The notes under the pieces were generated by a model that saw nothing but the letters and a program-made list of their open reading frames with translations, had not been told where the DNA came from and searched no databases. A stretch of 64,000 bases of DNA from Dehalococcoidia bacterium (lineage in GTDB: Bacteria > Chloroflexota > Dehalococcoidia > UBA2979): contig OZ253555.1 of the NCBI GenBank assembly GCA_965262725.1, forward strand, positions 3,136,001 through 3,200,000, in the 5' to 3' direction. Positions 5,757-61,875 of this stretch are shown one piece after another; the stretch's first letter is position 1, and each line of letters starts with the position of its first letter. The position numbers and the translations under genes were made by a program.

Positions 5757-6585
5757 GGGCCGCCGGGGAACCGGGAGACTCCCCGCGGCCGCCCGCGGGC
5801 GCAATCGGGTCGAGCACGGCGCGCCACGCCGCCGGGCCGAAGCCGCCGTCGAGGTGCAGGGTGTGGCCGACCAGCATCACCGACTCCTCCGAGCACACCC
5901 AGGCGACGGCCGCCGCCACGTCGTCGGGTGCCACGTTCCGCCCGGCCGGCACGTAGGGGCGCACCCGTCCGGAGACCTCGGCGCGCACGCTGCGCTCCCC
6001 CTCCGAGCCCTCGACCCAGCCCGCCGAGACCCCGTTCACGCGGATCCCGCGCGGCGCCAGCTCGACCGCGAGGTAGAGCGTGAGCGACTCCAGCGCCGCC
6101 TTGCTCACCCCCACCGCCGCGTAGCCAGCCATGTAGTGGTGCGAACCTGGAGAGAGCAGGTTCACGATCGAGCCGCCGCCGGCCTCCTGGAGCAGGGGTG
6201 CCGCGAGCTGCGCGGCACGCCAGGGCCCGAAGAGGTTCACCTCCATCGCCCGGTGCAGGTGGGCCGGACGCTGATCGATGGCCGCGCGGGGGCGCTCTAG
6301 CCCGCGCGCGGCGTTGTTGACGAGGATGTCGAGGCCGCCCGCGAGCCGCGCACGCTCGATGAGCGACCGGAGGTCCTCGGGCACGCCCGCGTCGGAGCGC
6401 AGCGCCTCCGCCTTCACCCCCCGCGCCCGGCACTCCGCGACGGTCTCGTCGGCGTCCTCCTGCGAGCGGGCGTAGGTGAGGAGCACGTGCGCTCCCTCAT
6501 CCGCGAGCCGGAGGGCGATCGCACGGCCGATCCCACGCGACCCACCGAGCACGAGAGCGCGCCGCCCCGCCAAGGAGTCGTACAT
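5746..6585 (-). CDS. SDR family oxidoreductase (FabL/enoyl-ACP reductase-like)
   Basis: [23 protein letters not shown]. Confidence 0.85.
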
Positions 6586-7099: not shown

Positions 7100-8365
7100 C
7101 TACGGCGCCCCGGCCGCGACCTGGGAGAGTGCGATCGCGAAGCGCCCGATCGCCTCGCGCAGGAGCTCCGGCGGATGCGCCGAGTAGACGAGGCGCAGCT
7201 GGCTCTCCCCCCGCTCCTCCGGCGGAGGCGCGCCGACGGGGAGCGCCCCGGGGTCCGGGTAGTAGCCCTCGCCGGGCGTCACCGCGACGCCCTTGCGCGC
7301 GGCGGCGGCGACCACGGCGGAGGCACGCAGCCCCCCGGCGAGGCGGAGCCAGTGGAAGAAGCCGCCGGCCGGGCTACGGAAGCGCACGTGCGCGCCGCAG
7401 AGTTCGGCGAGGGCACGGGCCGAGGCGTCGCGCCGCTCCCGGTAGAGCGCGCAGAGATCGGCCACGTGCGCGTCGTAGTGGCCGCCGGCCAGGTACTCAT
7501 GCACCGTCCTCTGCACGAAGGGCGAGGCGCCGTTGTCGAAGCGCATGAACGCGAGGCGCTCGACGATCGGCGGGTCGGCCGTGATCCAGCCGACCCGCAG
7601 CCCCGTCCCGATCGTCTTCGAGAAGGTGCCGACGCGCAGGATCCCGCGCCCCTCGGCCGCGGCGAAGAGGGGCGCGGGGGGAGGCCCGTCGAGGTCGATG
7701 CCGGTGTAGGCGTCGTCCTCGACGATCAGCGCGCCGTGCTCGCGGGCGAGCCGGACCAACTCTGTGCGCCGCTCCCACGGGAGCGTCGAGCCGCTCGGGT
7801 TGTCGTAGTTGGCGACCACGTAGAGGAGCTTGGCCGGCGTCCCGCCGGCCTCAAGGCGGCGCAGCGCGACGGCGAGCGCCGACGGCTCGATGCCGTCGGC
7901 GTCCTGCGGCACCGACGCGATCCGGGCGCCGCGCGCGCGGAAGGCGCGGACCGCTCCTGGGTAGGTGGGTGCCGGCGTGACCACAACGTCGTTCGGGCCC
8001 AGGAAGGTCGCCGCGATGTTGTCGATGGCGTGGGCCGAGCCCGAGGTCAGAGTGATGTGCCCGGACGTGAGCTCAACGCCCGTCTCAGCGGTCTGCCGCT
8101 CCGCGATCCACGCCCGCAGCGGCTCGTACCCGAGCGCGCCGCCGTAGGTAAGCGCCCCGGCCGGGTCGCGGTCGAGCGCGCGCAGCACGGCCTCGGCGAG
8201 CTCGCGGGCGGGAAGGCTCGCCGCGTCCGGGAGCCCGGCGTTGAGATCGAAGGGAAGCTCAGAGAGCGACGTCGGCGGGCGCAGCTCGCGCACGGCGGGG
8301 GCGAGCAGCCGCTCGATGAAGTCGGCTTCCCCCGCGCCCGGCCCGTCGTCGCTGCTGCTCGCCAT
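7100..8365 (-). CDS. PLP-dependent aminotransferase class I (MocR/LysN-like)
   Basis: NYDNPSG, IVEDDAY, GTFSKTIGTGLRVGW. Confidence 0.9.
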   Translation of the reverse strand: MASSSDDGPGAGEADFIERLLAPAVRELRPPTSLSELPFDLNAGLPDAASLPARELAEAVLRALDRDPAGALTYGGALGYEPLRAWIAERQTAETGVELTSGHITLTSGSAHAIDNIAATFLGPNDVVVTPAPTYPGAVRAFRARGARIASVPQDADGIEPSALAVALRRLEAGGTPAKLLYVVANYDNPSGSTLPWERRTELVRLAREHGALIVEDDAYTGIDLDGPPPAPLFAAAEGRGILRVGTFSKTIGTGLRVGWITADPPIVERLAFMRFDNGASPFVQRTVHEYLAGGHYDAHVADLCALYRERRDASARALAELCGAHVRFRSPAGGFFHWLRLAGGLRASAVVAAAARKGVAVTPGEGYYPDPGALPVGAPPPEERGESQLRLVYSAHPPELLREAIGRFAIALSQVAAGAP

Positions 8366-9811: not shown

Positions 9812-12478
9812 GTGACCGAACGCGAGGGGGGTCTGCTCCCGGAGGTCTCCTGCGGCGGCCTGCTCGGGGTCGTGCGCGGCGGCGGGGCGGCCACAGACGG
9901 CCGGCACGCCTTCGCCCTCCCCGGCGACCGTCCGGTGTGGGGACGCGACCGGCCCTTCGCCGTCGAGCACATCGCGCTGGAGTTCTCCTTCGATCTCGCG
10001 CGCCGCGAACTGCACGGCGTCGCGACCACCACCTTCCGCCCGCGGGCCGCCGGGCTGCGCGAGGCCGTCTTCGACGCCCGGGAGCTCGACGTCGAGTCGG
10101 TGACCGACGGCACGGGTCGTGCCCTCCCGTTCCGCCTCGGCGAGCGCTCGCTCCACGTCGACCTCGGGCGTCCGCGATCTCCCCGTCGCCGCATCACGAC
10201 GGTGGTGCGCTACAGGGCGCGCCCGCGCCGCGGGCTCTACTTCAACGCCCCGGACCCCGACTATCCCGACAGGCCGCGGCAGATCTGGACCCAGGGACAG
10301 GCAGAGGACTCCGCCTACTACTTCCCCTGCTTCGACTACCCCGGTGAGAAGGCGACCTCCGAGCTCACGGCGACGGTGCCGGCCGGGTGGTTCGTGCTCT
10401 CCAACGGCCGCCTCGCCTCCCGCCGAGAGGATCGGCGCCGTCGCCGCGCCATCTACCACTGGCGCCAGGAGCGCCCGCACCCCGCCTACCTGGTGACGCT
10501 CGTCGCAGGTGAGCTGGTCTCCGTCGAGGAGAGCGCCCCTGGTGCCGGCCCCGGCGGCTCGGAGGTCCCGGTCTCCTACCACGGCCCCGCGGGGAGCCGG
10601 CCGGCGCTGAGGCGCGCCTTCGGCCGTACGCCAGCGATGGTGCGCTTCTTCGCCGAGAGGATCGGCACGCCCTACCCGTGGCCGAAATACGACACGGTGG
10701 CCGTCTCGGACTTCATTTTCGGCGGGATGGAGAACACCTCGGCGACGACGATGACCGACGTGCTGCTCCACGACGCGCGGGCACACGAGGATCTCGCGGA
10801 GCTCTGCGACTCGATCACGGCACACGAACTCGCCCACCAGTGGTTCGGCGACCTCCTGACCTGCCGCGAGTGGTCGCACGGCTGGCTCAACGAGAGCTTC
10901 GCGACCTACTTTGACTCGCTGTGGGTGGAGCACGCACGGGGGTGGGACGCCTTCCGCCACGATCTTCGGGAGAAGGCGAAGGCGTACTTCAGCGAGGACG
11001 CTCAGAGCTACCGCCGCCCGCTGGTCCAGAACGTCTTCACCGAGCCCATCGACATCTTCGACCGACACCTCTACGAGCGGGGCGCCCAGGTGCTCGACAT
11101 GCTCCGCTACGTGCTGGGGGACGATCTCTGGTGGCGCGCGATCGCCCACTACGTCTCGAGCCACCGCGAGCGGAACGTGCTCACACACGACCTCCAGAGG
11201 GCCGTGGAGGAGGCGACGGGGCGCAACCTCGACTGGTTCTTCGACCAGTGGGTCTGGAAGGGCGGACACCCCGAGCTGCGGGCGACCTACTCTTGGGACG
11301 CTGAGCATCAGCTCGCGACGGTGCGGGTCGCGCAAGAGCAGAGGGTCGACGGCGACCCGCTCACCTCGATCTACCGCATGCCCCTCGAGATCGCCTTCCG
11401 CACGGAGCAGGGGCTCCGCACCATCCGCGTCGAGGTCTCCGAACTCTCGCACTCCTTTGTCTTCCCGCTCGACGGCGAGCCGCGCTGGGTCGCGATCGAC
11501 CCGGCGAACCGCGTGCTGAAGAAGCTCGTGTTCGAGCCGGGGGAGGCGCAGCTTCGCGCGAGGCTCGCCGAGGACCGCGAGGCGGTGGGGCGCATCGAGG
11601 CGGCAGAGGGGCTGGCGGCGGTCGGCTCCCCGCGAGCCGTCGAGGCGCTCGCCTCGGCGCTCGCGTCGGAGAGCGAGAACGATCTCGTCCGCGCCTCCGT
11701 CGCGACCGCGCTCGGCACGGTGCGCGCGGAGGCCGCGCGCAATGCGCTCATCGCCGCGCTCGACTCCCCGTCGGCGCGTGTACGCCGTGCGGCGGCGCGC
11801 GCGCTCGGCGAGAACCGGGACGAGGCGACGGCGCGGGCGCTCGCCGGGCGGCTGCGCGGGCGCGGCGACCGCTCGTACTACGTGCAGGCGGCGGCCGCCG
11901 CCGCGCTGGGCGCGACCAGGCAGCCCTCCTGCTTCCAAGCACTCCGCCGCGTGCTGGAGCGTCCGGCCCACAACGACGTCATCACCGCGGGCGCGCTGAC
12001 CGGCCTCGGTGCGCTGCGCGATCCGCGCGCCCTCGAGACGTTGATGGCCTACACCGCCCGGGGCCGCCACCCGAACGCGCGGCGGGCGGCCGCGGCGGCG
12101 CTCGGGCGGCTGGCACCGTTCACCGACGAGGGTCCGCGCGCCCGGGCGCGCGAGCGGCTGATCGAGCTTCTCGACGACGGGGAGCTGCGTGTTCAGCTTC
12201 AGGCGGCCGCTGCCCTGACCGATCTCGGCGATGCGCGCGCCGTGCCGGCGCTCCACCGGGTGTCCGGGCGCGCGCTCGACGGCCGGTTCCGCCGCGCCTG
12301 CCGCGTCGCCGCCCGCGACCTCGCCGAACGCTCCGACAAGGGCGATCAGGTGCGCGCGCTCACCGACGAGGTGGAGAAGCTCAGACAGCGCAACGACGCG
12401 CTGCGCGACCGCCTGGATGCGATGGAGGCCCGCCTCGGCGTCGAGGGCGCAGCAACCACTGCGCCCTCGACGCCATAG
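9812..12478 (+). CDS. M1 family aminopeptidase with HEAT repeats and C-terminal coiled coil
   Basis: GGMENTS, HELAHQWFGD...WLNESFATY, HEAT-like VRRAAARALG repeats. Start is GTG 9812 or 9794. Confidence 0.92.
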   Translation: MTEREGGLLPEVSCGGLLGVVRGGGAATDGRHAFALPGDRPVWGRDRPFAVEHIALEFSFDLARRELHGVATTTFRPRAAGLREAVFDARELDVESVTDGTGRALPFRLGERSLHVDLGRPRSPRRRITTVVRYRARPRRGLYFNAPDPDYPDRPRQIWTQGQAEDSAYYFPCFDYPGEKATSELTATVPAGWFVLSNGRLASRREDRRRRRAIYHWRQERPHPAYLVTLVAGELVSVEESAPGAGPGGSEVPVSYHGPAGSRPALRRAFGRTPAMVRFFAERIGTPYPWPKYDTVAVSDFIFGGMENTSATTMTDVLLHDARAHEDLAELCDSITAHELAHQWFGDLLTCREWSHGWLNESFATYFDSLWVEHARGWDAFRHDLREKAKAYFSEDAQSYRRPLVQNVFTEPIDIFDRHLYERGAQVLDMLRYVLGDDLWWRAIAHYVSSHRERNVLTHDLQRAVEEATGRNLDWFFDQWVWKGGHPELRATYSWDAEHQLATVRVAQEQRVDGDPLTSIYRMPLEIAFRTEQGLRTIRVEVSELSHSFVFPLDGEPRWVAIDPANRVLKKLVFEPGEAQLRARLAEDREAVGRIEAAEGLAAVGSPRAVEALASALASESENDLVRASVATALGTVRAEAARNALIAALDSPSARVRRAAARALGENRDEATARALAGRLRGRGDRSYYVQAAAAAALGATRQPSCFQALRRVLERPAHNDVITAGALTGLGALRDPRALETLMAYTARGRHPNARRAAAAALGRLAPFTDEGPRARARERLIELLDDGELRVQLQAAAALTDLGDARAVPALHRVSGRALDGRFRRACRVAARDLAERSDKGDQVRALTDEVEKLRQRNDALRDRLDAMEARLGVEGAATTAPSTP

Positions 12479-51799: not shown

Positions 51800-51857
51800 T
51801 GGCGGAGGGGGTGGGATTCGAACCCACGGTGCGTCGAAACACACGACGGATTTCAAG
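51800..51857 (-). repeat. Displaced tRNA-Ser 3' half (distal att site)
   Basis: Identical to 58004-58061 except G51833 vs A58037. Confidence 0.95.
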
Positions 51858-51973
51858 TTCGCAGGCAGTCGTCCCAGCATGTGCCCCCACGTCGCCTTGG
51901 CGCCCTCTCTGAACTGACATTGGTTCACCCGCATGACGCCGAATCCCAGCTCATCCCCCCTCTTGCGTCACGT

Positions 51974-51992
51974 ATGCCTACGGGATGCCTAC
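51974..51992 (+). repeat. ATGCCTAC x2 (11-bp period), putative integrase arm sites
   Basis: ATGCCTACgggATGCCTAC; same pair at 57914-57932. Confidence 0.75.
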
Positions 51993-52466
51993 GCGGTTCG
52001 CGGTCTGAGCGAGAGTCGTTCACCTCCCGCATCGTCCACTACACACGCTCCGGCGGGCTGGTTGGCCGCATCGATGATAAGCCGATCCTGACCGCGCTCG
52101 GCGTCGTGCAGGTCAGGTTCTCCGATCGTGAGCAAGTCCGCTGGTGGATCCGTGCGATCTACTACATGTTCGTCGGGTGATAAGCCGTGTCGCTGTGGTT
52201 GCTAGTGGCGTGGGTGGCCAGCATCACAAGCCCTTCTGCTGCAACTGGCGTTCTGGATGCACGGGGCGACCGGTAAGGTGCAGACACTTCGCCGCTAGGA
52301 GGTAGAGGCTGAGGCAACTGATCGTAGACGGCGGGGCGCGCCCGATCTGCGCGACCAGCGCGAATATCGCGATCGGGATCACCTGCAACGTCGGTGCCGG
52401 GATCTCCGTCTCGACCTTCTGGCTGGCAGAGTCTGCTCCGGGGAGCGACTCGAAGAGGCGGCGGCG

Positions 52467-52788
52467 CACTTCTGGGCAAGCTCGCTTCTGGTTGGGGACG
52501 ACTACGGGCGGGCCCGCGTGCCAGTGCTCCCCGTGGTGCGGGAGAGCGGGAGGCAAAGCGGCAGATACTCCTCTTGCACGCTGCCGCTCGTGCCGCTGAT
52601 GCCCGTCGCCGGCGCCGTCGCCGAACTGCGCTGGATCTGCTTCGCGGCGGCGGGCGCCACCGGCTTCCTCTGGTACGCGCCGCGCTGGGGCGGCGGCCGG
52701 GCATCGAGGGCGCGCGCTGTTCCGCTTCTCCGTGATCTACCTGGCGCTTGCTCTTCGCCGCACGGCGGACCAGCTGCTGCTCGGCTAG
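52467..52788 (+). pseudogene. Heme o synthase (CtaB/CyoE) C-terminal remnant, several frameshifts
   Basis: Across frames: HFWASSLLVGDDYGRARVPVLPVVR / GEREAKRQILL / FLWYA / ARALFRFSVIYLAL..ADQLLLG*. Confidence 0.7.
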
Positions 52789-53023
52789 ACACAGCATGCG
52801 TGCGGAGACCCTGATGGCGGCGCTCGCTGGACATTCGGCCGGTCGCGTCCGGATCCTCCACGAACAGGACACACGTGCGGTATGGTCACCGGGCAGGAAG
52901 GCGCCGCGGGAATGTGGCGAATGCATGCGGGCGGCCAGGGCCGGCGGCCGCATCCGCCAGCTGACACTGGGCGTGCGCAGACACTGTGCTCGCCAACATC
53001 CATGACCCGGAGACGCGGATCTC

Positions 53024-54838
53024 GTGAACAGCCACGGCGCGCAACCAGCCATCGGGGACTACGGGCTGATCAGCGACCTGCACTCCGGTGCGCTCGTCTC
53101 GAGTGCGGGGTCCATCGACTGGTGTTGCTTCCCCAGGTTCGATAGCGCGGCGGTCTTCAGCCGCATTCTCGATTGGCAGCGCGGCGGGTATTTTCAACTC
53201 GCCCCGCAGGGCGTCCACACGACCGAGCGCCGTTATCTCCCCAACACGAAGATCATCGAAACCACTTTCCATGCGGACGGGGGGTCGGCACAGTTGACCG
53301 ACTGGATGCCGGTGCGCAGCGACAACCCGGAGGACCCGCGAGCCGTGGAGGCCAGCCAGCAGATCGTGCGGACACTCGAATGCACGAGCGGCGAGGTGCG
53401 GTTCAGCATGCGTTGCCGCCCCCGATTCGACTACGGAACGATCATCCCCCATGTGACGCTGAACGGGGAGCACGACGGCGTGGCTCATGGGGGTGCCGAT
53501 GCGCTGGCCGTCTACTGCAGCGCACCGATGCGCGACGTCGCCGATGACGGGTTCCTCGCGGATGGACGGCTCCGCAGCGGCGAGCGTGTGAGCGCCGTCG
53601 TCACGTACCAATCGCGCTCGTCGGCAGTCGCCGACGGCGATCTCGACAGACTGCTGGCGGAGACCCGCACGTTCTGGGAGGGGTGGGCCGCCGGATGCCG
53701 GTACGACGGTGCCTACCACGACGAGGTGATGCGATCCGCGCTCACGCTGAAGGCACTGACCTACGCGCCCTCCGGCGGGCTCGTTGCGGCCGTCACGACC
53801 TCCCTGCCGGAGGCGGTAGGGGGCCCGCGCAACTGGGACTACCGCTTCACCTGGATTCGTGACGCATCGTTCGCGCTCTACGCGCTCTCCATCCTCGGGT
53901 ACCGGGAGGAGGCCCGGCACTTCAAGAACTGGCTTGAGTGGAGCACCTCCGGGCGCGCGCGCGACCTCCAGATCATGTACGGCCTCGGCGGCGAGCGTCG
54001 GCTGACGGAAATCGAACTGCCGGAACTCGACGGCTACCGGGGCTCGAAACCGGTCCGTATCGGCAACGGCGCATACTCGCAGTTCCAGCTGGACATCTAC
54101 GGGGAAGTGATGGACTCGGCGCATCTCTACCGCATATTCGGCGGCGAGATGGACCCCGAGTACTGGGACTTCCTGCGGCACGTCGCCGCCTTCGTGATCG
54201 ACCACTGGCGAGAACCGGACGAAGGCCTGTGGGAGACGCGCGGTGGCCGCCAACACTTCGTCTTCTCCAAGGTGATGTGCTGGGTGGCACTGGACCGTGC
54301 GATCAAGGCCGCGCGCGCGCTCGACATGCCGGGCGACGTCGATCTGTGGGCGCGCGTGCGCGCCGAAATTCGCGACGAGGTGCTGACCCGCGGCTACGAC
54401 GGCGATCGTGGCGCGTTCGTGCAGGCGTACGGCAGCAAGAACCTAGATGCTAGCAACCTGCTGCTACCGCTCTTCGGGTTCATCGAGGCGACCGAACCGC
54501 GGATGGAGTCGACGATCCGGGCGATCAGCCGTGAACTGACGTCGCCAGAGGGCCTGGTGTACCGCTACCGCGGATACGAGGACGGGCTAGCCGGCGGTGA
54601 GGGGACGTTCACTGTCTGCACGTTCTGGCTGGCGGACAACCTGATCCTCCTCGGCGAGGTCGACCGGGCGCGAGAGATCTTCCAGACGTTGCTCAGTCAC
54701 GGGAACGACCTGGGGTTGTTCAGCGAGGAGATCGAGCCGGGAAGCGGCGAGATGCTCGGCAATTTCCCGCAGGCGTTCAGCCACATGGGACTGATCAATA
54801 CCGCCCGCAACCTCGACCGCGCGGAGTCCCCCGAGTGA
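53024..54838 (+). CDS. Glycoside hydrolase family 15 (trehalase/glucoamylase-like)
   Basis: IDWCCFPRFDS, TTSLPE..GG.RNWDYRFTWIRD, DEGLWE, LGNFPQAFSH. Confidence 0.93.
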   Translation: MNSHGAQPAIGDYGLISDLHSGALVSSAGSIDWCCFPRFDSAAVFSRILDWQRGGYFQLAPQGVHTTERRYLPNTKIIETTFHADGGSAQLTDWMPVRSDNPEDPRAVEASQQIVRTLECTSGEVRFSMRCRPRFDYGTIIPHVTLNGEHDGVAHGGADALAVYCSAPMRDVADDGFLADGRLRSGERVSAVVTYQSRSSAVADGDLDRLLAETRTFWEGWAAGCRYDGAYHDEVMRSALTLKALTYAPSGGLVAAVTTSLPEAVGGPRNWDYRFTWIRDASFALYALSILGYREEARHFKNWLEWSTSGRARDLQIMYGLGGERRLTEIELPELDGYRGSKPVRIGNGAYSQFQLDIYGEVMDSAHLYRIFGGEMDPEYWDFLRHVAAFVIDHWREPDEGLWETRGGRQHFVFSKVMCWVALDRAIKAARALDMPGDVDLWARVRAEIRDEVLTRGYDGDRGAFVQAYGSKNLDASNLLLPLFGFIEATEPRMESTIRAISRELTSPEGLVYRYRGYEDGLAGGEGTFTVCTFWLADNLILLGEVDRAREIFQTLLSHGNDLGLFSEEIEPGSGEMLGNFPQAFSHMGLINTARNLDRAESPE

Positions 54839-55020
54839 TGACTGCATCAACCCTTGCCTGAGGATTCAGCAGATGACCCGGCCAATCGGGAAGGCCACAC
54901 GGGAGTCTCACGCATCGAGTTTGCCCGTCCGTTGGGCTGCATTCGTCGGGCGAATGGCCCCAGAATGGCTCGCGCGGCACCGGCCGCAGGGCCCGCGGTC
55001 CCGATCGCAGGTTTGAATGG

Positions 55021-55068
55021 TGGCGACCCCGATCGGATTCGAACCGACGATCTCCACCGTGACAGGGT
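55021..55068 (-). repeat. tRNA-Asp(GTC) 3' half (att core)
   Basis: ACC-CT-GTC-AC-GGTGG AGATC GTCGG TTCGAAT CCGAT CGGGGTC G CCA; no D-arm or 5' acceptor strand. Confidence 0.85.
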
Positions 55069-55368
55069 ACTCAGGCCGATCCCGGCCCGTCGCTTCTGGT
55101 CCCTTCGCGAGCCATTTCGTACCTAACGATAAGGGCTTATGACAAGTCATGTCACCGCTCGTGCCCCCCCGTCCCAGGCCGTACCACCGAACACGGCCCC
55201 AAGATGGCCCCAAGATGACGGACGCGGGCGGCGGTGAGATCGTGATGATCACCCGCTCTGTCCCAGTGCGCGATGCCGAGGGCGTTTTGGTCATCATCAC
55301 CACCGACCTGCCCGTGGATGCCCCCACCCGGTAACGCCTAGCGCGCGGGCCTGCCGGCTCGCGGCATC

Positions 55369-55557
55369 ATGCTCGGACACTCCGACGTGCGGATCACCCT
55401 GAACACTTACACGCACGCCTTCGATGAGAACCGTCGTCGCGACGCGGAACGGATGGACGCTGCCCTCGGCGCCGAACGCCAATGTGACCGCGGGCGACAG
55501 GTCCAAGCCGCCACAGTCGATTCCAGGTCCAAGAAACGGTGGGGAGACGGGATTTGA
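55369..55557 (+). pseudogene. Tyrosine integrase extreme C-terminal remnant
   Basis: MLGHSDVRITLNTYTH (box II His and catalytic Tyr). Confidence 0.8.
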
Positions 55558-55576
55558 ACCGGCGACCTCCTGACCC
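55538..55576 (-). repeat. Degenerate tRNA 3' half, probably tRNA-Pro (att core)
   Basis: GGGTCAGGAGGTCGCCGGTTCAAATCCCGTCTCCCCACC; TTCAAAT T-loop and CTCCCC(G)ACC acceptor strand. Confidence 0.65.
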
Positions 55577-55636
55577 GCTGGCCGAATCCACCGACGGCTT
55601 GGGCCGAGATGCTCGTCCCATCTCGGGCGCTGGTCC

Positions 55637-55800
55637 TCATGTGAGGTCCGTGATGAAAGCGACTGCATCTGCCGCCCCGAGGATGTGATTGGCCGCGCAC
55701 TGTCCCTGCGCGGCGACGACTACGACCAAGCGTCCCTCGTCGTCGAGCACGCGCAGCCACGAGGCGATGTAGGCCGAGGACTGCTCGCCCGCGCTGCTCA
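55637..55800 (-). pseudogene. ArdC/DUF1738 zincin-like antirestriction C-terminal remnant
   Basis: EQSSAYIASWLRVLDDEGRLVVVVAAQGQCAANHILG. Confidence 0.7.
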
Positions 55801-55883
55801 ATCCGACCGGGAAGCGCGCCCTCGCCCTGCTCGGCGACTGACCCCGGATCGCCCCCGCCAACCTCAACGCCTGCTTCCCGCCG

Positions 55884-56034
55884 ATCCTCAGGGGAATCGC
55901 GGCGCTGCAGGGTTCGGCGGTGCACTACCGGATCAGGATCGGCGACTACCGGCTCGGGATAGAGATCGGGGACGGCGCCGGCCATCCTTGCCAGATTCGG
56001 GCATCGCCGCGACTTCTACCGAAGCTTCCGCTGA
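55884..56034 (+). pseudogene. RelE/ParE family toxin remnant (frameshift near 55980)
   Basis: LQGSAVHYRIRIGDYRLGIEI, then in the shifted frame AILARFGHRRDFYRSFR*. Confidence 0.75.
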
Positions 56035-56113
56035 TGCTCGCCTCGAGGTGATCGCGGCTCTCTGCGGCCGCGGCGTAGTATGAAGACAGGATGCTCGCCG
56101 GGGAGGATCACTC

Positions 56114-56371
56114 ATGATCGCAAGCGTGAAGGCCAGATATGCCAACGGCGTCCTCACGCCACTGGAACCGCTCGAGTTGGAAGAGGGCGAGGAGGTCACG
56201 GTGTCGATCGAAGGCGCGCCGGCGGAGCGTGGAGGTCTGGGCGCCATCGTGGAGGCGGTCAAGGAACTCCACAGGTCCATCCCTCCGGACGCGTGGGACG
56301 TTCTGCCGACCGACCTCGCGAAGAACAAAAAGCACTACCTCTACGGCCATCCCAAGGAGGAGGATGATTGA
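56114..56371 (+). CDS. DUF104/AF2212-like antitoxin
   Basis: VKARYANGVLTPLEPLELEEGEEVTVSI; GGAGG RBS; overlaps the PIN gene start. Confidence 0.85.
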   Translation: MIASVKARYANGVLTPLEPLELEEGEEVTVSIEGAPAERGGLGAIVEAVKELHRSIPPDAWDVLPTDLAKNKKHYLYGHPKEEDD

Positions 56372-56782
56372 GGTTGGTCTTCGCAGATGCGGGCTACTGG
56401 ATCGCGCTCTGGCATCCCAGGGACACGCTGCACCAAAGGGCGATGGCTGTAACGAAAAACCCTGGGAGCGGCTGCGGTCGTGACAACGCAGCTCGTCCTG
56501 GTCGAGGCGCTCGACGCCATGGCGGGCATGGGCGAATTCCGCCGGCGATTCGCAGCCCAGATGGTCCAGAGACTCGAAGATAGCCCGGACGTGGAGATCG
56601 TCCCGCAGACCGACGCCCAGTTCCGGGCTGCCGTCGAGCGCTACGTCGGCCGACCTGACCAGCGATGGAGCCTGACGGACTGCGCCAGCTTCCTGGTGAT
56701 GGAGGAGCGGAACATCACCGAGGCGCTGGCGCACGACCGGGACTTCGAGCAGGCTGGCTTCACCGCCCTGCTCAGGGGATGA
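56368..56782 (+). pseudogene. PIN/VapC toxin split by a 1-nt insertion in an A5 run (56455-56459)
   Basis: VFADAGYWIAL...LHQRA / VVTTQLVLVE...WSLTDCASF..M...ALAHDRDFEQAGF. Confidence 0.85.
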
Positions 56783-56815
56783 CCCGACCCGCGACCGGCC
56801 TTCCGGTATGAGCCC

Positions 56816-57496
56816 TTGAACATCCTCCACGCCTCCACCGACCCGGACCTGCTGACCCGACTGCGGGAGATGCTGGACAGCTCCGCCCGCGCCGACATCG
56901 CCGTCGGCTACTTCTTCATCTCCGGCTTCGGGCCCGTCAGCGAGGAACTGTCGACACTCGAGAAGGTGCGCATCCTCGTCGGGCGGGCCGACCGGCCCGT
57001 GCTGGAGGCGGTGGCCGCGGGGCTCCAGCAGCCGGACGCGCTGCGCGCGCGGCTCGCCACAGATGGGCTCGTGCAGCGGCGCGAACGCCCGGCGATCGCC
57101 CGGGATGCGGTGGAGCGCATCGCCGACGGCGTGGCCCTGCTGCCGCAGACCGCCGACTCCCAGCGCTCCGTCGCCTTGCTGCGCGACATGGTCGCCTCGG
57201 GGCGCGCCGAAGTGCGCGCCTACCGGCGCAGCCCGCTGCACGCGAAAGCCTACCTCTGCTGGTACGACGACCACACCGAGCCGGGCGCGGCAGTCGTCGG
57301 CTCCTCGAACCTCACGCTGGCCGGGTTCAGCGGGAACACCGAGCTCAACGTGCGCGTCACCGGCGACGCGGGGATGAGCGCCCTGCGCGAGTGGTTCGAC
57401 GCCCTGTGGGAGGACTCGGAGGATATCGGCGAGGAGCTTCGGCTTACCCCGAATCCACCGATCGACGCTCGAGGGCTCGCCGGAGACGGTGAATAA
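56816..57496 (+). pseudogene. PLD-like nuclease domain, probably the truncated N-terminus of a PLD-SNF2 helicase
   Basis: DIAVGYF..SGF, LHAKAYL, VGSSNLT.AG...NTELNV, WFDALW, then abrupt loss of similarity. Confidence 0.75.
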
Positions 57497-57752
57497 CCTC
57501 GCCAAACGGTGGGGTGCGCTGCGTGATCGGCTGGGGCTCACGGGCCTCAGGTTCCACGATCTGCGGCACACCAGCGCGACGTTGGCCCTTGAAGCCGGCG
57601 TACACCCAAAGGTTGTGCAGGAACGTCTCGGACACGCCAATATCGGAGTCACGCTCGACACGTATAGCCACGTGCTCCCCAACATGCAGCGCGAGGCGGC
57701 CGAGAAACTGGATGCGCTGGTGCCGCGTCCACGAGCGCGTGGCGCTTCGTAG
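57489..57752 (+). pseudogene. Tyrosine integrase C-terminal remnant (probable cognate of the tRNA-Ser island)
   Basis: RFHDLRHTSAT...GVHPKVVQERLGHANIGVTLDTYSH; N-terminal part missing. Confidence 0.9.
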
Positions 57753-57913
57753 GCACGCCGCATCCCCCTATCCGCACTCGGCAGGGAAAGCGCGCGGCTT
57801 CGGAATCTGCGGGTTGAAGCCCCGACGAGTGTGTCCGGGCGGCGGCCGCTGCCCCGGGACGTGCGCTCACGGTAGCCCGCCGCCGATCTGCGTCGGTGCC
57901 GCATTGGCCGCGA

Positions 57914-57932
57914 ATGCCTACGAAATGCCTAC
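57914..57932 (+). repeat. ATGCCTAC x2 (11-bp period), putative integrase arm sites
   Basis: ATGCCTACgaaATGCCTAC, 72 bp from the tRNA 3' end. Confidence 0.75.
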
Positions 57933-58003
57933 AACTGATCAGTCTCGTGATCACCGGAAGGGTGACGACGAACGCCCCGCAGAGGCCGTCGTAGATTCAG
58001 AAT

Positions 58004-58093
58004 TGGCGGAGGGGGTGGGATTCGAACCCACGGTGCATCGAAACACACGACGGATTTCAAGGCCGCTCCCTTAAACCACTCGGGCACCCCTCC
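58004..58093 (-). tRNA. tRNA-Ser(TGA), 90 nt, encoded CCA
   Basis: GGAGGGG/CCCCTCC acceptor stem, G73, anticodon loop CT-TGA-AA, long variable arm, GTTCGAATC. Confidence 0.95.
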
Positions 58094-59749: not shown

Positions 59750-59836
59750 CGCAGCTCGACCCCAATCACCCGCCCGGTACCTTGAGGGGGGCATGGGCGC
59801 GTGCTACGATCGCTGTCGGCGTCGCCTCTCGAGGAT

Positions 59837-59865
59837 GACGTGGGCACGGGCCCACGTCTTTTTTT
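59837..59865 (+). terminator. rimP-leader-type intrinsic terminator/attenuator ahead of nusA
   Basis: GACGTGGGC-ACGG-GCCCACGTC-T7; extended -10 TGcTACGAT at 59802-59810. Confidence 0.8.
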
Positions 59866-59921
59866 AGCCCGGCACGCGGCCACCATCTGTTCGCGGCCCG
59901 TTGAGCGACGCTGGGGAGATC

Positions 59922-61520
59922 ATGAAGAACGAGTTCGTCGTCGCGATCACACAGCTCTCGGCCGAGAAGAGCCTGGACACCGACACCGTCTTCGACGCCG
60001 TCGAGTCGGCGATGGCGTCGGCGTTCAAGAACGACGACCTCCTCTACGCCGACGTCGTGGTGAAGATCGACCGCGACTCCGGGGACATCGACGCGTGGCG
60101 CCGCTACGAGGTGGTCGCCGACGACGAGATCGAAGACGACGAGTTGCAGCTATCACCGGAGCGCGCCGCCGCGATGGGCCACCCGGGCCTCGCGCCCGGC
60201 GACGAGGTGCTCGAGCCCATCCCCCAGAGTCCGAGCACAGGCCGAATCGCAGCCCAGACCGCAAAACAGGTCGTGCTGCAGCGGCTGCGCGAGGCGGAGC
60301 GCGAGGCGGTCTACAGCGAGTTCACCAGCAAGGAAGGCGAGCTGGTCTCCGGCACGGTGCTGCGCGTCGAGCAGGGCCGGCACGTGATCATCGACCTCGG
60401 CCGCACCGAGGCCGTGCTCCCCGTCTCCGAGCAGGTCCGACCGGAGCACTACCGGGTCGGCCAGCGCCTGCGGGTCTACGTGAAGGAGGTCTACCGCGCC
60501 TCGAAGGGGCCCCAGGTGGTGATCTCGCGCTCGCACCCCGAGCTCGTCCGACGGCTGCTCGAGCTCGAGGTGCCCGAGATCGCGCGCGGCACCGTGGAGG
60601 TGATGAGGATCGCGCGCGATCCCGGCTATCGCTCGAAGGTCGCGCTCATCTCGCGCCAGCACGGCATCGATCCGATCGGAGCCACGATCGGGATCCGCGG
60701 CTCGCGCATCCAGAACATCGTGAACGAGCTCAACGGCGAGCGGATCGATCTGATCCGCTGGGATCCGAACGACGCCGTCTTCGTGAGCAGTGCCCTCCGT
60801 CCCGCCGAGGTGGTCTCAGTGAGGGTGGATGCGCAGACGAACACTGCCTTCGTGGCCGTGCCGGACAAGCAGATGACGCTCGCGATCGGCAAAGAGGGTC
60901 AGAACGCGCGCCTCGCCGCGAAGCTCGCGGGGCGCCGCATCGAGATCCAGACGGAGGGCTCCCTCATCAGCGCCGGGGAGGATCTCTACCCACCGCCCGA
61001 GCCGAACATGGAGGCGATCCCGCGCTCGGACGTGCCACTGGAGCCCGCGCTGCCCCCGCTGCCCGAGGCCGTCGCCACCGGCGCCGACTACCAGCGCCCG
61101 GGCCTCCCCGGATCGTCGCCGCCGCCGGCCGCGCCGGCGACCGCTCCTCCCGAGCCCGCGCTCACGCCGGAGCAGGAGGTCTTGGCAGGGTTCGTGGAAG
61201 AGGAGCCGACTGCGCCTCTCGAGGAGACGCATCCCGCTCCGACGCGGCCCCAGCCGGCGGCGCCGGCCACCGGCCTCCGCTTCGCCGAGGAGATCTCCGG
61301 CCTGGCGCGCGAGGAGGAGCCGGAGGAGCGCCGGCCGCCGCGGCGCCCGCGACGGGCGAGCGGGCGCGGCGGCCGCGCTGCCGGTGCCGAGCGCGCTCCG
61401 GTCGCGCCGCGCGAGGGACGACGCTTCGAGGTCGACGAGGAGGATATCGAGGAGGGACTCGCCGAGCTCCACGACGACTACAGCGAGTACGCCGACATGT
61501 TCACGGACGAGGAGGAGTAG
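59922..61520 (+). CDS. nusA: Transcription termination factor NusA
   Basis: GRIAAQTAKQV, ELEVPEI, IARDPG.RSK, AIGKEGQNARLAAKL. Confidence 0.96.
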   Translation: MKNEFVVAITQLSAEKSLDTDTVFDAVESAMASAFKNDDLLYADVVVKIDRDSGDIDAWRRYEVVADDEIEDDELQLSPERAAAMGHPGLAPGDEVLEPIPQSPSTGRIAAQTAKQVVLQRLREAEREAVYSEFTSKEGELVSGTVLRVEQGRHVIIDLGRTEAVLPVSEQVRPEHYRVGQRLRVYVKEVYRASKGPQVVISRSHPELVRRLLELEVPEIARGTVEVMRIARDPGYRSKVALISRQHGIDPIGATIGIRGSRIQNIVNELNGERIDLIRWDPNDAVFVSSALRPAEVVSVRVDAQTNTAFVAVPDKQMTLAIGKEGQNARLAAKLAGRRIEIQTEGSLISAGEDLYPPPEPNMEAIPRSDVPLEPALPPLPEAVATGADYQRPGLPGSSPPPAAPATAPPEPALTPEQEVLAGFVEEEPTAPLEETHPAPTRPQPAAPATGLRFAEEISGLAREEEPEERRPPRRPRRASGRGGRAAGAERAPVAPREGRRFEVDEEDIEEGLAELHDDYSEYADMFTDEEE

Positions 61521-61563
61521 CGGCACGCCACTGGAGGCCACGACGAAACGCCGCCGGCCACAC

Positions 61564-61875
61564 GTGCCGGACCCGGTCCGGCAGCGGCCCCAGCGCAGCT
61601 GCGTCGCCTGCCGCTCGAAGCGGGAGAAGCGCCAGCTGACGCGGCTCGTGCGCGACACCGACGGATCCATCCACACGGACCCCGAGGGGCGGGCCGAAGG
61701 GCGCGGCGCTTACCTCTGTGACGACCCGGCCTGCTGGCGGCGCGTGGTCACGAAGCCCATGCTGCTGGCCCGCGCGCTGCGCGCGCCGGCCGGGACCATC
61801 GCAGCCTCGGCGCTGGAGAATCTTGCGGGAGCGCCCGCAGCGCCGGTCGTGCCGGCGGAGGGAGCGAGCAGATGA
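61564..61875 (+). CDS. ylxR: YlxR/RnpM (DUF448) family protein
   Basis: PQRSCVACR...L.RLVR...GRGAYLC; start uncertain. Confidence 0.88.
   Translation: MPDPVRQRPQRSCVACRSKREKRQLTRLVRDTDGSIHTDPEGRAEGRGAYLCDDPACWRRVVTKPMLLARALRAPAGTIAASALENLAGAPAAPVVPAEGASR

Follow-up and report, generated by a model that had tools for sequence, protein, structure and literature searches.

A 6.2-kb islet at a tRNA-Ser gene of a Dehalococcoidia bacterium, carrying att cores of three tRNAs, is probably the deletion relic of a mosaic integrative element

In Sulfolobus genomes, tRNA fragments and pieces of integrase genes persist as fossils of past integrations, and the elements concerned carry attP inside the integrase gene, so that integration splits the gene. 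In the Islander scheme, as it is outlined in PMC4383910, the ends of an island are marked by an intact tRNA gene (tDNA) and a co-oriented, displaced 3' fragment of it; the attachment (att) site is centred on the anticodon, and attP carries the 3' part of the tDNA. Classical accretion of integrative and conjugative or integrative and mobilizable elements (ICEs and IMEs) is presented in PMC5704250 as the stacking of elements at one shared att specificity. The Shewanella island CGI48 with GI21, in the description given in PMC8978831, is a composite island with a nested element of another specificity, whose parts are intact and separable. Here, we analyse an islet at a tRNA-Ser(UGA) gene in a 64,000-nucleotide stretch of a Dehalococcoidia genome (hereafter the window, to which all coordinates without a genome label refer). 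Our results suggest that its interior (51858-58003) is probably what deletions have left of a mosaic Ser-targeting element with a tyrosine integrase, belonging to an att family that we call F1, and that it resembles a cis-mobilizable element (CIME).

The window corresponds to G000:C1:3136001-3200000, where G000 is the genome that holds it, a single contig of 3.67 Mb with a G+C content of about 70%. The G+C content is 62-67% over most of the islet (range 0.62 to 0.745) and mostly 70-74% in its flanks. The tRNA genes were called with ARAGORN over all of G000 (64 calls), and the fragments inside the islet were compared with those host tRNA genes. Empty sites were searched with a 14-kb query against 40 relatives, and the matching loci were fetched and compared; the relatives named below are G001, G002 (same genus), G003 and G008. 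Sequencing runs (X1-X8) were examined for the islet, four of them at the level of contigs and unitigs, from which rare variants drop out; no RNA run was among those listed as containing the region.

The outer boundaries of the islet display the classical signature of integration at a tDNA. The complete tRNA-Ser(UGA) gene (58004-58093, minus strand; ARAGORN call tga, Rfam tRNA score 53.1 bits) has a displaced 3' fragment on its 3' side and on the same strand, at 51800-51857. A repeat finder and BLAST both return a direct repeat of 58 nt (51800-51857 and 58004-58061) with 57/58 identity, which begins at the first base of the anticodon loop, ends with the encoded CCA and bounds an interval of ~6.2 kb (51800-58061). 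The sole mismatch (51834 G, 58038 A) is private to the tRNA copy of G000, which suggests that the integration may be of some age. The displaced fragment corresponds to the attL core, and the complete gene to a regenerated one made of the attR core and the 5' half. In contig C170 of G002 the interval is absent: the left flank (up to window 51676) is followed by 27 nt, an intact tRNA-Ser and then the right flank, which is an empty site. Together, the 58-nt repeat and this empty site identify the islet as an insertion.

Both ends also retain the arms of the F1 family. The P arm (51858-51993) lies next to the displaced fragment and carries a tandem ATGCCTAC-N3-ATGCCTAC motif at 51974-51992, and the P' arm (57753-58003) lies next to the complete gene and carries the same motif at 57914-57932. 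This motif occurs six times in the 3.67 Mb of G000, and each copy adjoins a tRNA or a tRNA-like core: two are those of the islet (51974 and 57914), two lie at the ends of a tRNA-Leu(caa) interval (3344457 and 3384877), and the copies at 329007 and 2411109 each adjoin a degenerate Leu-like core. From their position and rarity, we infer that these motifs are predicted arm-type binding sites. The P arm is homologous to the arm of the G003 Ser fragment and to arms beside Leu(caa) cores (G000:3384876-3385059, 328826-329026 and 2410990-2411128), and the P' arm is kept beside tRNA-Ser in G003 and G001 and beside tRNA-Leu(caa) in G000. The Leu(caa) interval itself (G000:C1:3344297-3385069, 41 kb) is bounded by F1 arms as the Ser islet is, with an IS21 copy at the place where the integrase is expected.

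The relatives show what a larger occupant of the same site looks like. In G003, the left flank, the Ser fragment and the next 135 nt sit 139 kb from tRNA-Ser, on one contig and in the correct orientation, and the F1 arms are conserved at both attL and attR; in G001, island DNA also adjoins tRNA-Ser and the arm of attR is conserved. The G003 island retains a full 409-aa integrase followed by a Replic_Relax gene, 22 kb from tRNA-Ser, with IS110 copies and cas1/cas2 in between; the 139-kb interval (L013, L018; G003:C1:1026-1050 kb) also includes an SNF2 helicase. Of the corresponding enzyme, the islet keeps only the last ~96 residues (tail 2; 57462-57752, plus strand), which match positions 109-170 of the 172 of PF00589 (E 4e-12) and are 91% identical in amino acids to residues 314-403 of the G003 integrase. 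The closest other integrase of G000 to this Ser-type enzyme shares no more than 51% identity with it.

Integration at tRNA-Ser adds only Ser cores and cannot make the two other tRNA fragments of the islet, both of which lie, like the Ser fragment, on the minus strand. The 3' fragment of tRNA-Asp(GUC) at 55020-55068 is identical over 49/49 positions to the host tRNA-Asp(gtc) gene (G000:1330884-1330960), from tRNA position 30 to one base beyond CCA. It is the core of a site in attP form of a second att family, E2, with a P' arm at 54933-55019 (~87 nt) and a P arm at 55069-55317 (249 nt, on the anticodon side of the core). Both arms bear ATGGCCCC-type tandem repeats, that of the P' arm at 54954-54975. 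Counterparts of the P' arm directly follow the 3' end of the genuine tRNA-Asp in G003 (80%) and G001 (83%); in G002, only the 49-nt core matches. Its motif is also found at G000:361919 and at a Glu site of G003. The P arm is 87% identical to G000:2342949-2343248, where the core (2342953) is 45/45 identical to tRNA-Glu(ctc), 81% identical to G000:1717336-1717534, where the Asp core is degenerate, and 79% identical both to the arm of a displaced Asp fragment of G003 (attL at tRNA-Asp) and to that of a Glu(ttc) fragment in the G003 Ser island. The core motif of the P arm has six occurrences in G000.

In G003, the tRNA-Asp with its P' arm and the displaced Asp fragment with its P arm are 83 kb apart, and we take the former as attR and the latter as attL of an integrated element or array. 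The single core of the window is flanked by the two arms together, which is the arrangement of an unrecombined attP or, equally, of a junction within a tandem array. The G003 Ser island has a sister site (P', Glu core, P) ~190 nt beyond the F1 P arm. The E2 arms are conserved while the core differs, being Glu(ctc) at G000:C1:2342949-2343248, Glu(ttc) in G003 (L012, ~7100-7400) and Asp in the window; the anticodon stems of these three tRNAs are near-identical. A complete P'-Asp core-P site also occurs in G001 (L125, G001:C138:4351-4674) between DAO oxidoreductase and RCC1-repeat genes, with no integrase nearby, and this locus shows no synteny with G000.

The Asp module of the window thus has the core identity and the two arms of an attP; an adjacent cognate integrase is missing, and its expected place is occupied by a gene for a glycoside hydrolase of family 15 (GH15). 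The genes beside the P' arm in G003 and G001 are restriction-modification-like, and no E2 integrase was identified among them. Two XerC-like integrases of 337/338 aa (G000:1717.8k and 327.6k) were considered as E2 enzymes and rejected because their shared block runs from tRNA-Gly, or from a Gly fragment, to ~60 nt past the stop codon, and they therefore belong to tRNA-Gly-linked units.

The GH15 gene is the sole long intact cargo gene of the islet. With its upstream region it spans 52845-54838 on the plus strand, and its open reading frame (ORF; 53024-54838, 604 aa) matches PF00723 (E 4e-81) and TREH_N. It is 95% identical in DNA and 98% in amino acids to its counterpart in G003, and with a ratio of nonsynonymous to synonymous divergence (dN/dS) of 0.06 it is under purifying selection. 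Its dS from G003 is 0.19, whereas the values for five flanking chromosomal genes are about twice as high (0.34-0.62); a sixth flanking ORF (59801-61639), for which dN exceeded dS, was left out of this comparison as wrong-frame. In G003, the gene has the conserved downstream flank of tRNA-Asp on one side and the displaced Asp fragment on the other, and the block shared with the window has a P-arm remnant at its upstream edge and the Asp core with the P arm at the other side. Therefore, GH15 lies within an E2 att context, that of an array, in G003 too. In G002, it is found in a third context without att features. The nearest homologues in named genomes share 62-69% amino acid identity and come from metagenome-assembled genomes of Chloroflexota. 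In 80 distant GH15 loci, inspected with up to 3 kb of flank, an Asp core never occurs and a tRNA of any kind is present at four, which indicates that the adjacency of GH15 and Asp is private to G000 and G003.

The third specificity is represented by a damaged 3' fragment resembling tRNA-Pro(GGG) at 55541-55576 (minus strand). It is identical at 34/36 positions to the tRNA-Pro(ggg) gene at G000:1085785-1085861, the identity beginning inside the anticodon loop; its two mismatches turn an A-T pair of the T stem into C-C, and one base is lost before the terminal ACC. Beside it lies tail 1 (55342-55485, plus strand; tblastn E 4e-19), ~45 C-terminal residues of a Pro-type tyrosine integrase with an internal deletion of 23 aa. 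Tail 1 aligns with the integrase adjacent to tRNA-Pro(ggg) (G000:1084546-1086396) from residue 318 onward (48% over 116 aa, interrupted by a gap of 23 aa), and taken alone gives a weak PF00589 match (E 0.07). Tail 1 and the Pro core together (55369-55576) are 81% identical in DNA to G000:1037536-1037744, where a perfect Pro fragment is directly joined by the tail of another integrase; the full integrase and tRNA-Pro(ggg) lie 48 kb away, at 1085k. The whole locus (G000:C1:1037470-1085861) resembles a tandem array whose older member has decayed, and the open frame of its full integrase (617 aa) passes antisense across the tRNA gene. By the same order of an integrase end followed by a core, the Pro module of the window looks like a possible internal junction of a tRNA-Pro tandem array. 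The 3' end of an ArdC-like gene follows directly after the Pro core, and a Pro core with an ArdC module a few kb further on is also found at G000:2411k.

Like the insertion, the truncations and the identity of each att module and arm are direct observations, and they bear out most of the anatomy proposed in an earlier sequence-only reading of the locus. The 58-bp Ser repeat around ~6.2 kb, the co-oriented Asp and Pro-like 3' fragments inside it, their breaks at or near the anticodon arm (at the first base of the loop for Ser, at position 30 for Asp and inside the loop for Pro) and the remnants of genes (UbiA/CtaB, ArdC-like and PLD fragments and a frameshifted PIN gene) all stand. So do the two integrase tails, but not the statement that each points toward a tRNA fragment: tail 2 faces the complete tRNA-Ser, and none faces the Asp fragment. 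The empty tRNA-Ser site that this reading proposed to look for in a related genome is the one in G002, and the host tRNA-Asp and tRNA-Pro genes were likewise located, the latter with a full integrase adjoining it.

Compared with the islands treated by Islander (PMC4383910), the islet thus has the classical outer tDNA signature; however, it has no integrase gene in the interval but only the two C-terminal tails (~96 and ~45 residues). Over the whole of G000, the PF00589 search gives within the islet only a partial match (3193471-3193680). The integrase filter of that scheme, as outlined there, would reject the islet, and the internal fragments of other tRNAs are not paired by it. The islet is similar to CIMEs as described in PMC5704250 in that it keeps attL and attR, with the core repeat and the F1 motifs at 51974 and 57914, and in that no complete integrase, relaxase or transfer gene of its own was found among the islet ORFs scanned. 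In contrast to the accretion set out in the same source, its internal att modules have other tRNA specificities; nor does it form a tandem array at one tDNA, the internal fragments being Asp and Pro-like rather than Ser. It shares with CGI48/GI21, to the extent described in PMC8978831, the presence in a tRNA-gene island of a second element whose relatives integrate elsewhere, but its parts are truncated and three specificities lie within 6.2 kb. The integrase tails also differ in origin from the Sulfolobus relics, as we ascribe them to deletions and not to splitting by integration.

We therefore favour, as probable, the reading of 51858-58003 as a CIME-like deletion relic of a mosaic F1 element. 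Judging from the anatomy of the site, an F1 element would have entered tRNA-Ser(UGA) by crossover in the anticodon loop, an event that would have regenerated the tRNA gene at 58004-58093 and moved the old 3' part to 51800-51857. This integration accounts for the outer repeat, the arms, tail 2 and the empty site. The element would have been, or have become, a mosaic: one part would be the E2 attP-form site (P', Asp core, P) beside GH15, and another the junction of an integrase end with a Pro core, as in tRNA-Pro tandem arrays. Recombination among co-resident elements with common modules could have built it. The unrecombined Asp site, the sister E2 (Glu) site of G003 and the array-like Pro junction together favour such a mosaic, and the form of the Asp site and the sister Glu site point to arrival of the foreign module either as part of the mosaic or by docking at an internal site. 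Later deletions would have joined the E2 P arm to tail 1 (~55318-55341) and the PLD gene to tail 2 (~57445-57461), trimmed the ArdC-like gene to its 3' end and removed the N-terminus of every recombinase. In its present state, the locus is a non-autonomous CIME-like islet, fixed in the lineage, with GH15 as its one clearly selected gene.

What we infer here is the sequence in which these events took place and the route of the foreign modules, which could have come in with the element or docked afterwards, and several observations weigh against the reading. No intermediate form was found that would order the events. The Asp core (49/49) and its two arms with their repeat motifs are better kept than would be expected of old debris, and would fit a site still in use. 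The heterologous cores are co-oriented and follow the integrase-end-then-core grammar, as in tandem arrays, which simple mosaicism does not predict. The putative assignment of the E2 arms is made by position, and their cognate integrase was identified nowhere. Finally, contigs may miss rare excised forms.

The alternative closest to this reading is growth in situ, in which a GH15-bearing E2(Asp) element would have docked at an E2 site resident in the Ser element and a Pro-type element at an orphan Pro core, with later deletions taking the second junction of each docking event. The G003 Ser island provides the corresponding undocked state in the E2 site (P', Glu core, P) that follows its F1 P arm, the GH15 gene of G003 sits inside an E2 array, and the lower dS of GH15 suggests a later arrival. 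Yet the islet has a single Asp core and a single Pro core, so that the predicted partner junctions are absent, the E2 integrase was not identified, and the DNA beyond the F1 P arm is non-homologous between G000 and G003; we consider this scenario unlikely. It bears on the proposal of the sequence-only reading that several elements with different targets accreted and decayed here. That remnants of several elements are present, and that they have decayed, is supported because each module has relatives in att contexts elsewhere and all recombinase genes are C-terminal tails; that they accreted at this place is not shown. The same reading had offered a second possibility, that of a multi-att cassette mobilised in trans, by which the islet or a GH15-attP(Asp) unit would be excised and reinserted at tRNA-Ser, tRNA-Asp and tRNA-Pro by integrases encoded elsewhere. 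The Ser attL and attR look intact, with arm motifs on each; the Asp site in attP form is perfect; the host tRNA-Asp, without an adjoining P' arm, looks unoccupied; an intact integrase adjoins tRNA-Pro(ggg); and the context of GH15 differs between each of G000, G002 and G003. Nevertheless, identity to the Ser-type enzyme does not exceed 51% for any integrase of G000, none was identified for the Asp arms, the damaged Pro core would not rebuild a tRNA, and runs of three studies contain 94-99% of the words sampled from the islet. Nor did the joints expected of such mobility appear: excision and empty-site joints, including the circle junction whose search had been suggested, were sought in the Logan contigs of four runs and none was credible, although rare forms would be missed in contigs. 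Two joints from 51828/51830 to 58003 were read as cross-matches to tRNAs of other organisms, as each side measures just 25-28 nt and their offset (6172-6174) does not fit the repeat spacing (6204). When metagenomes were scanned by pattern, the predicted empty site returned 0 matches; the junction of the Ser core with the F1 P arm was matched once, within a coding sequence that is unrelated and has no match in G000. The trans-mobilised cassette is therefore unsupported by our results, and we regard it as improbable.

A chromosomal origin of the junctions is less probable again. Recombination among tRNA-Asp, tRNA-Pro and tRNA-Ser islands could have moved the Asp and Pro junctions here, given that repeats suitable as substrates are many (the ArdC module in ~6 copies and several IS families) and that G000 has many orphan fragments remote from their tRNA genes. 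However, a single inversion would swap one flank, and is excluded because G002 shows both Ser flanks to be native neighbours; the Asp site is moreover flanked by both element arms and not by chromosomal flank, which makes this explanation very improbable. An assembly chimera of unrelated tRNA-adjacent sequences is hardly conceivable, even though tRNA-derived repeats are classic places of misjoining. Short-read unitigs of X1, X3 and X4, from three studies, each span 51803/51828 to ~55050 in one piece, that is, from the Ser fragment over GH15 to the Asp core, and those of X3 chain onward via 55039-55766 to 58030, joining the Asp core, tail 1 and the Pro core. One of these three runs may be the source sample of the assembly; as they come from three studies, the odd junctions are not the product of one assembly. 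In addition, G003 independently has GH15 beside the Asp core and P arm, and the F1 arm beside an E2 site. Run X2, labelled as a sponge metagenome, also contains pieces of the islet region at 2-3x depth, with few differences.

The remaining cargo consists of remnants and of one toxin-antitoxin pair, all but one on the plus strand. At 52459-52788 lies a pseudogene fragment of a UbiA/CtaB-type prenyltransferase, which alone gives no Pfam match and is 78% identical in DNA to G000:3031667-3032010, inside an intact UbiA gene (PF01040). The C-terminal remnant of the ArdC-like zincin (55640-55793, minus strand) is 88-90% identical in DNA to six other loci and matches PF18818 weakly (E 0.002). In G000, this gene is part of a module with a Rad52/22-like gene and a DnaG-type primase gene, which is at least 3.4 kb long and occurs in ~5-6 copies with 81-87% identity (G000:C1:2003093-2008211 and ~5 other loci). 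An AF2212-like antitoxin (56114-56371; PF01954, E 1e-10) is followed by a VapC-type toxin with a PIN domain (56368-56782), frameshifted in an A-run near 56455 into two ORFs (56368-56583 and 56480-56782; PIN E 0.003 for the second). At window position 56455, X1 is one base short in the A-run and X3 and X4 agree with the window; by coordinate arithmetic, the base loss of X1 puts both PIN pieces in one frame. Either strains differ at this base or one of the data sets contains a homopolymer error. Next comes the N-terminal PLD-domain fragment of a PLD-SNF2 helicase gene (56816-57444; PF13091, E 2e-10), of which G008 has a full-length homologue downstream of the same toxin-antitoxin pair. A candidate RelE/ParE-like gene at 55842-56048, suggested by a motif, was rejected, as Pfam returned 0 families at E up to 1.

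Debris of this kind is widespread in the genome. A BLAST search of G000 with the 3'-terminal 45 nt of every tRNA called by ARAGORN (64 in all) left, once overlaps with called tRNA genes were removed, 32 orphan tRNA 3' fragments; 14 are 100% identical to their own tRNA, and many are remote from its gene. Fragments of different tRNAs are clustered in several places: 361-375 kb (Ala/Asp/Ile/Ala), 2600-2616 kb (Arg(tcg)/Arg(tct)/Arg(tcg)) and 3405-3415 kb (Ala/Gly). The islet is therefore typical of G000 and not exceptional; less usual are the three specificities in 6.2 kb and the perfectly preserved orphan site in attP form. Among the ARAGORN calls themselves, a tRNA-Arg(cct) in the window (10413-10498) is unusually long at 86 nt, and three tRNA-Ser(tga) calls, all of 82 nt (G000:C1:342535, 405878 and 736840), may be false or lie in a repeat.

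Regarding the organism and its elements, G000 with its 32 orphan fragments appears to be a good place to study the decay and recombination of integrative elements. The islet also shows that such loci would be overlooked or wrongly divided by finders that depend on an integrase and on matching each tRNA to a fragment of itself, and it provides a worked example of arms that are conserved while the core differs, with Ser and Leu on one family and Asp, Glu(ttc) and Glu(ctc) on another. A broader idea, to which we give little credence, is that orphan tRNA-derived att sites serve as internal docking sites, by which integrase-less units such as "GH15 plus attP(Asp)" are shuttled in trans between islands and species. 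If true, this would amount to a tRNA-att cassette economy, loosely integron-like, and would explain the recurrent mixed-specificity att clusters of G000; in contrast to an integron platform, though, the islet lacks an intact integrase, each of its three att sites has arms of a different family, and no unit but GH15 resembles a single-gene cassette. If the Asp attP-form site is still competent for recombination, it could drive gene capture, or large inversions with tRNA-Asp, 1.86 Mb away.

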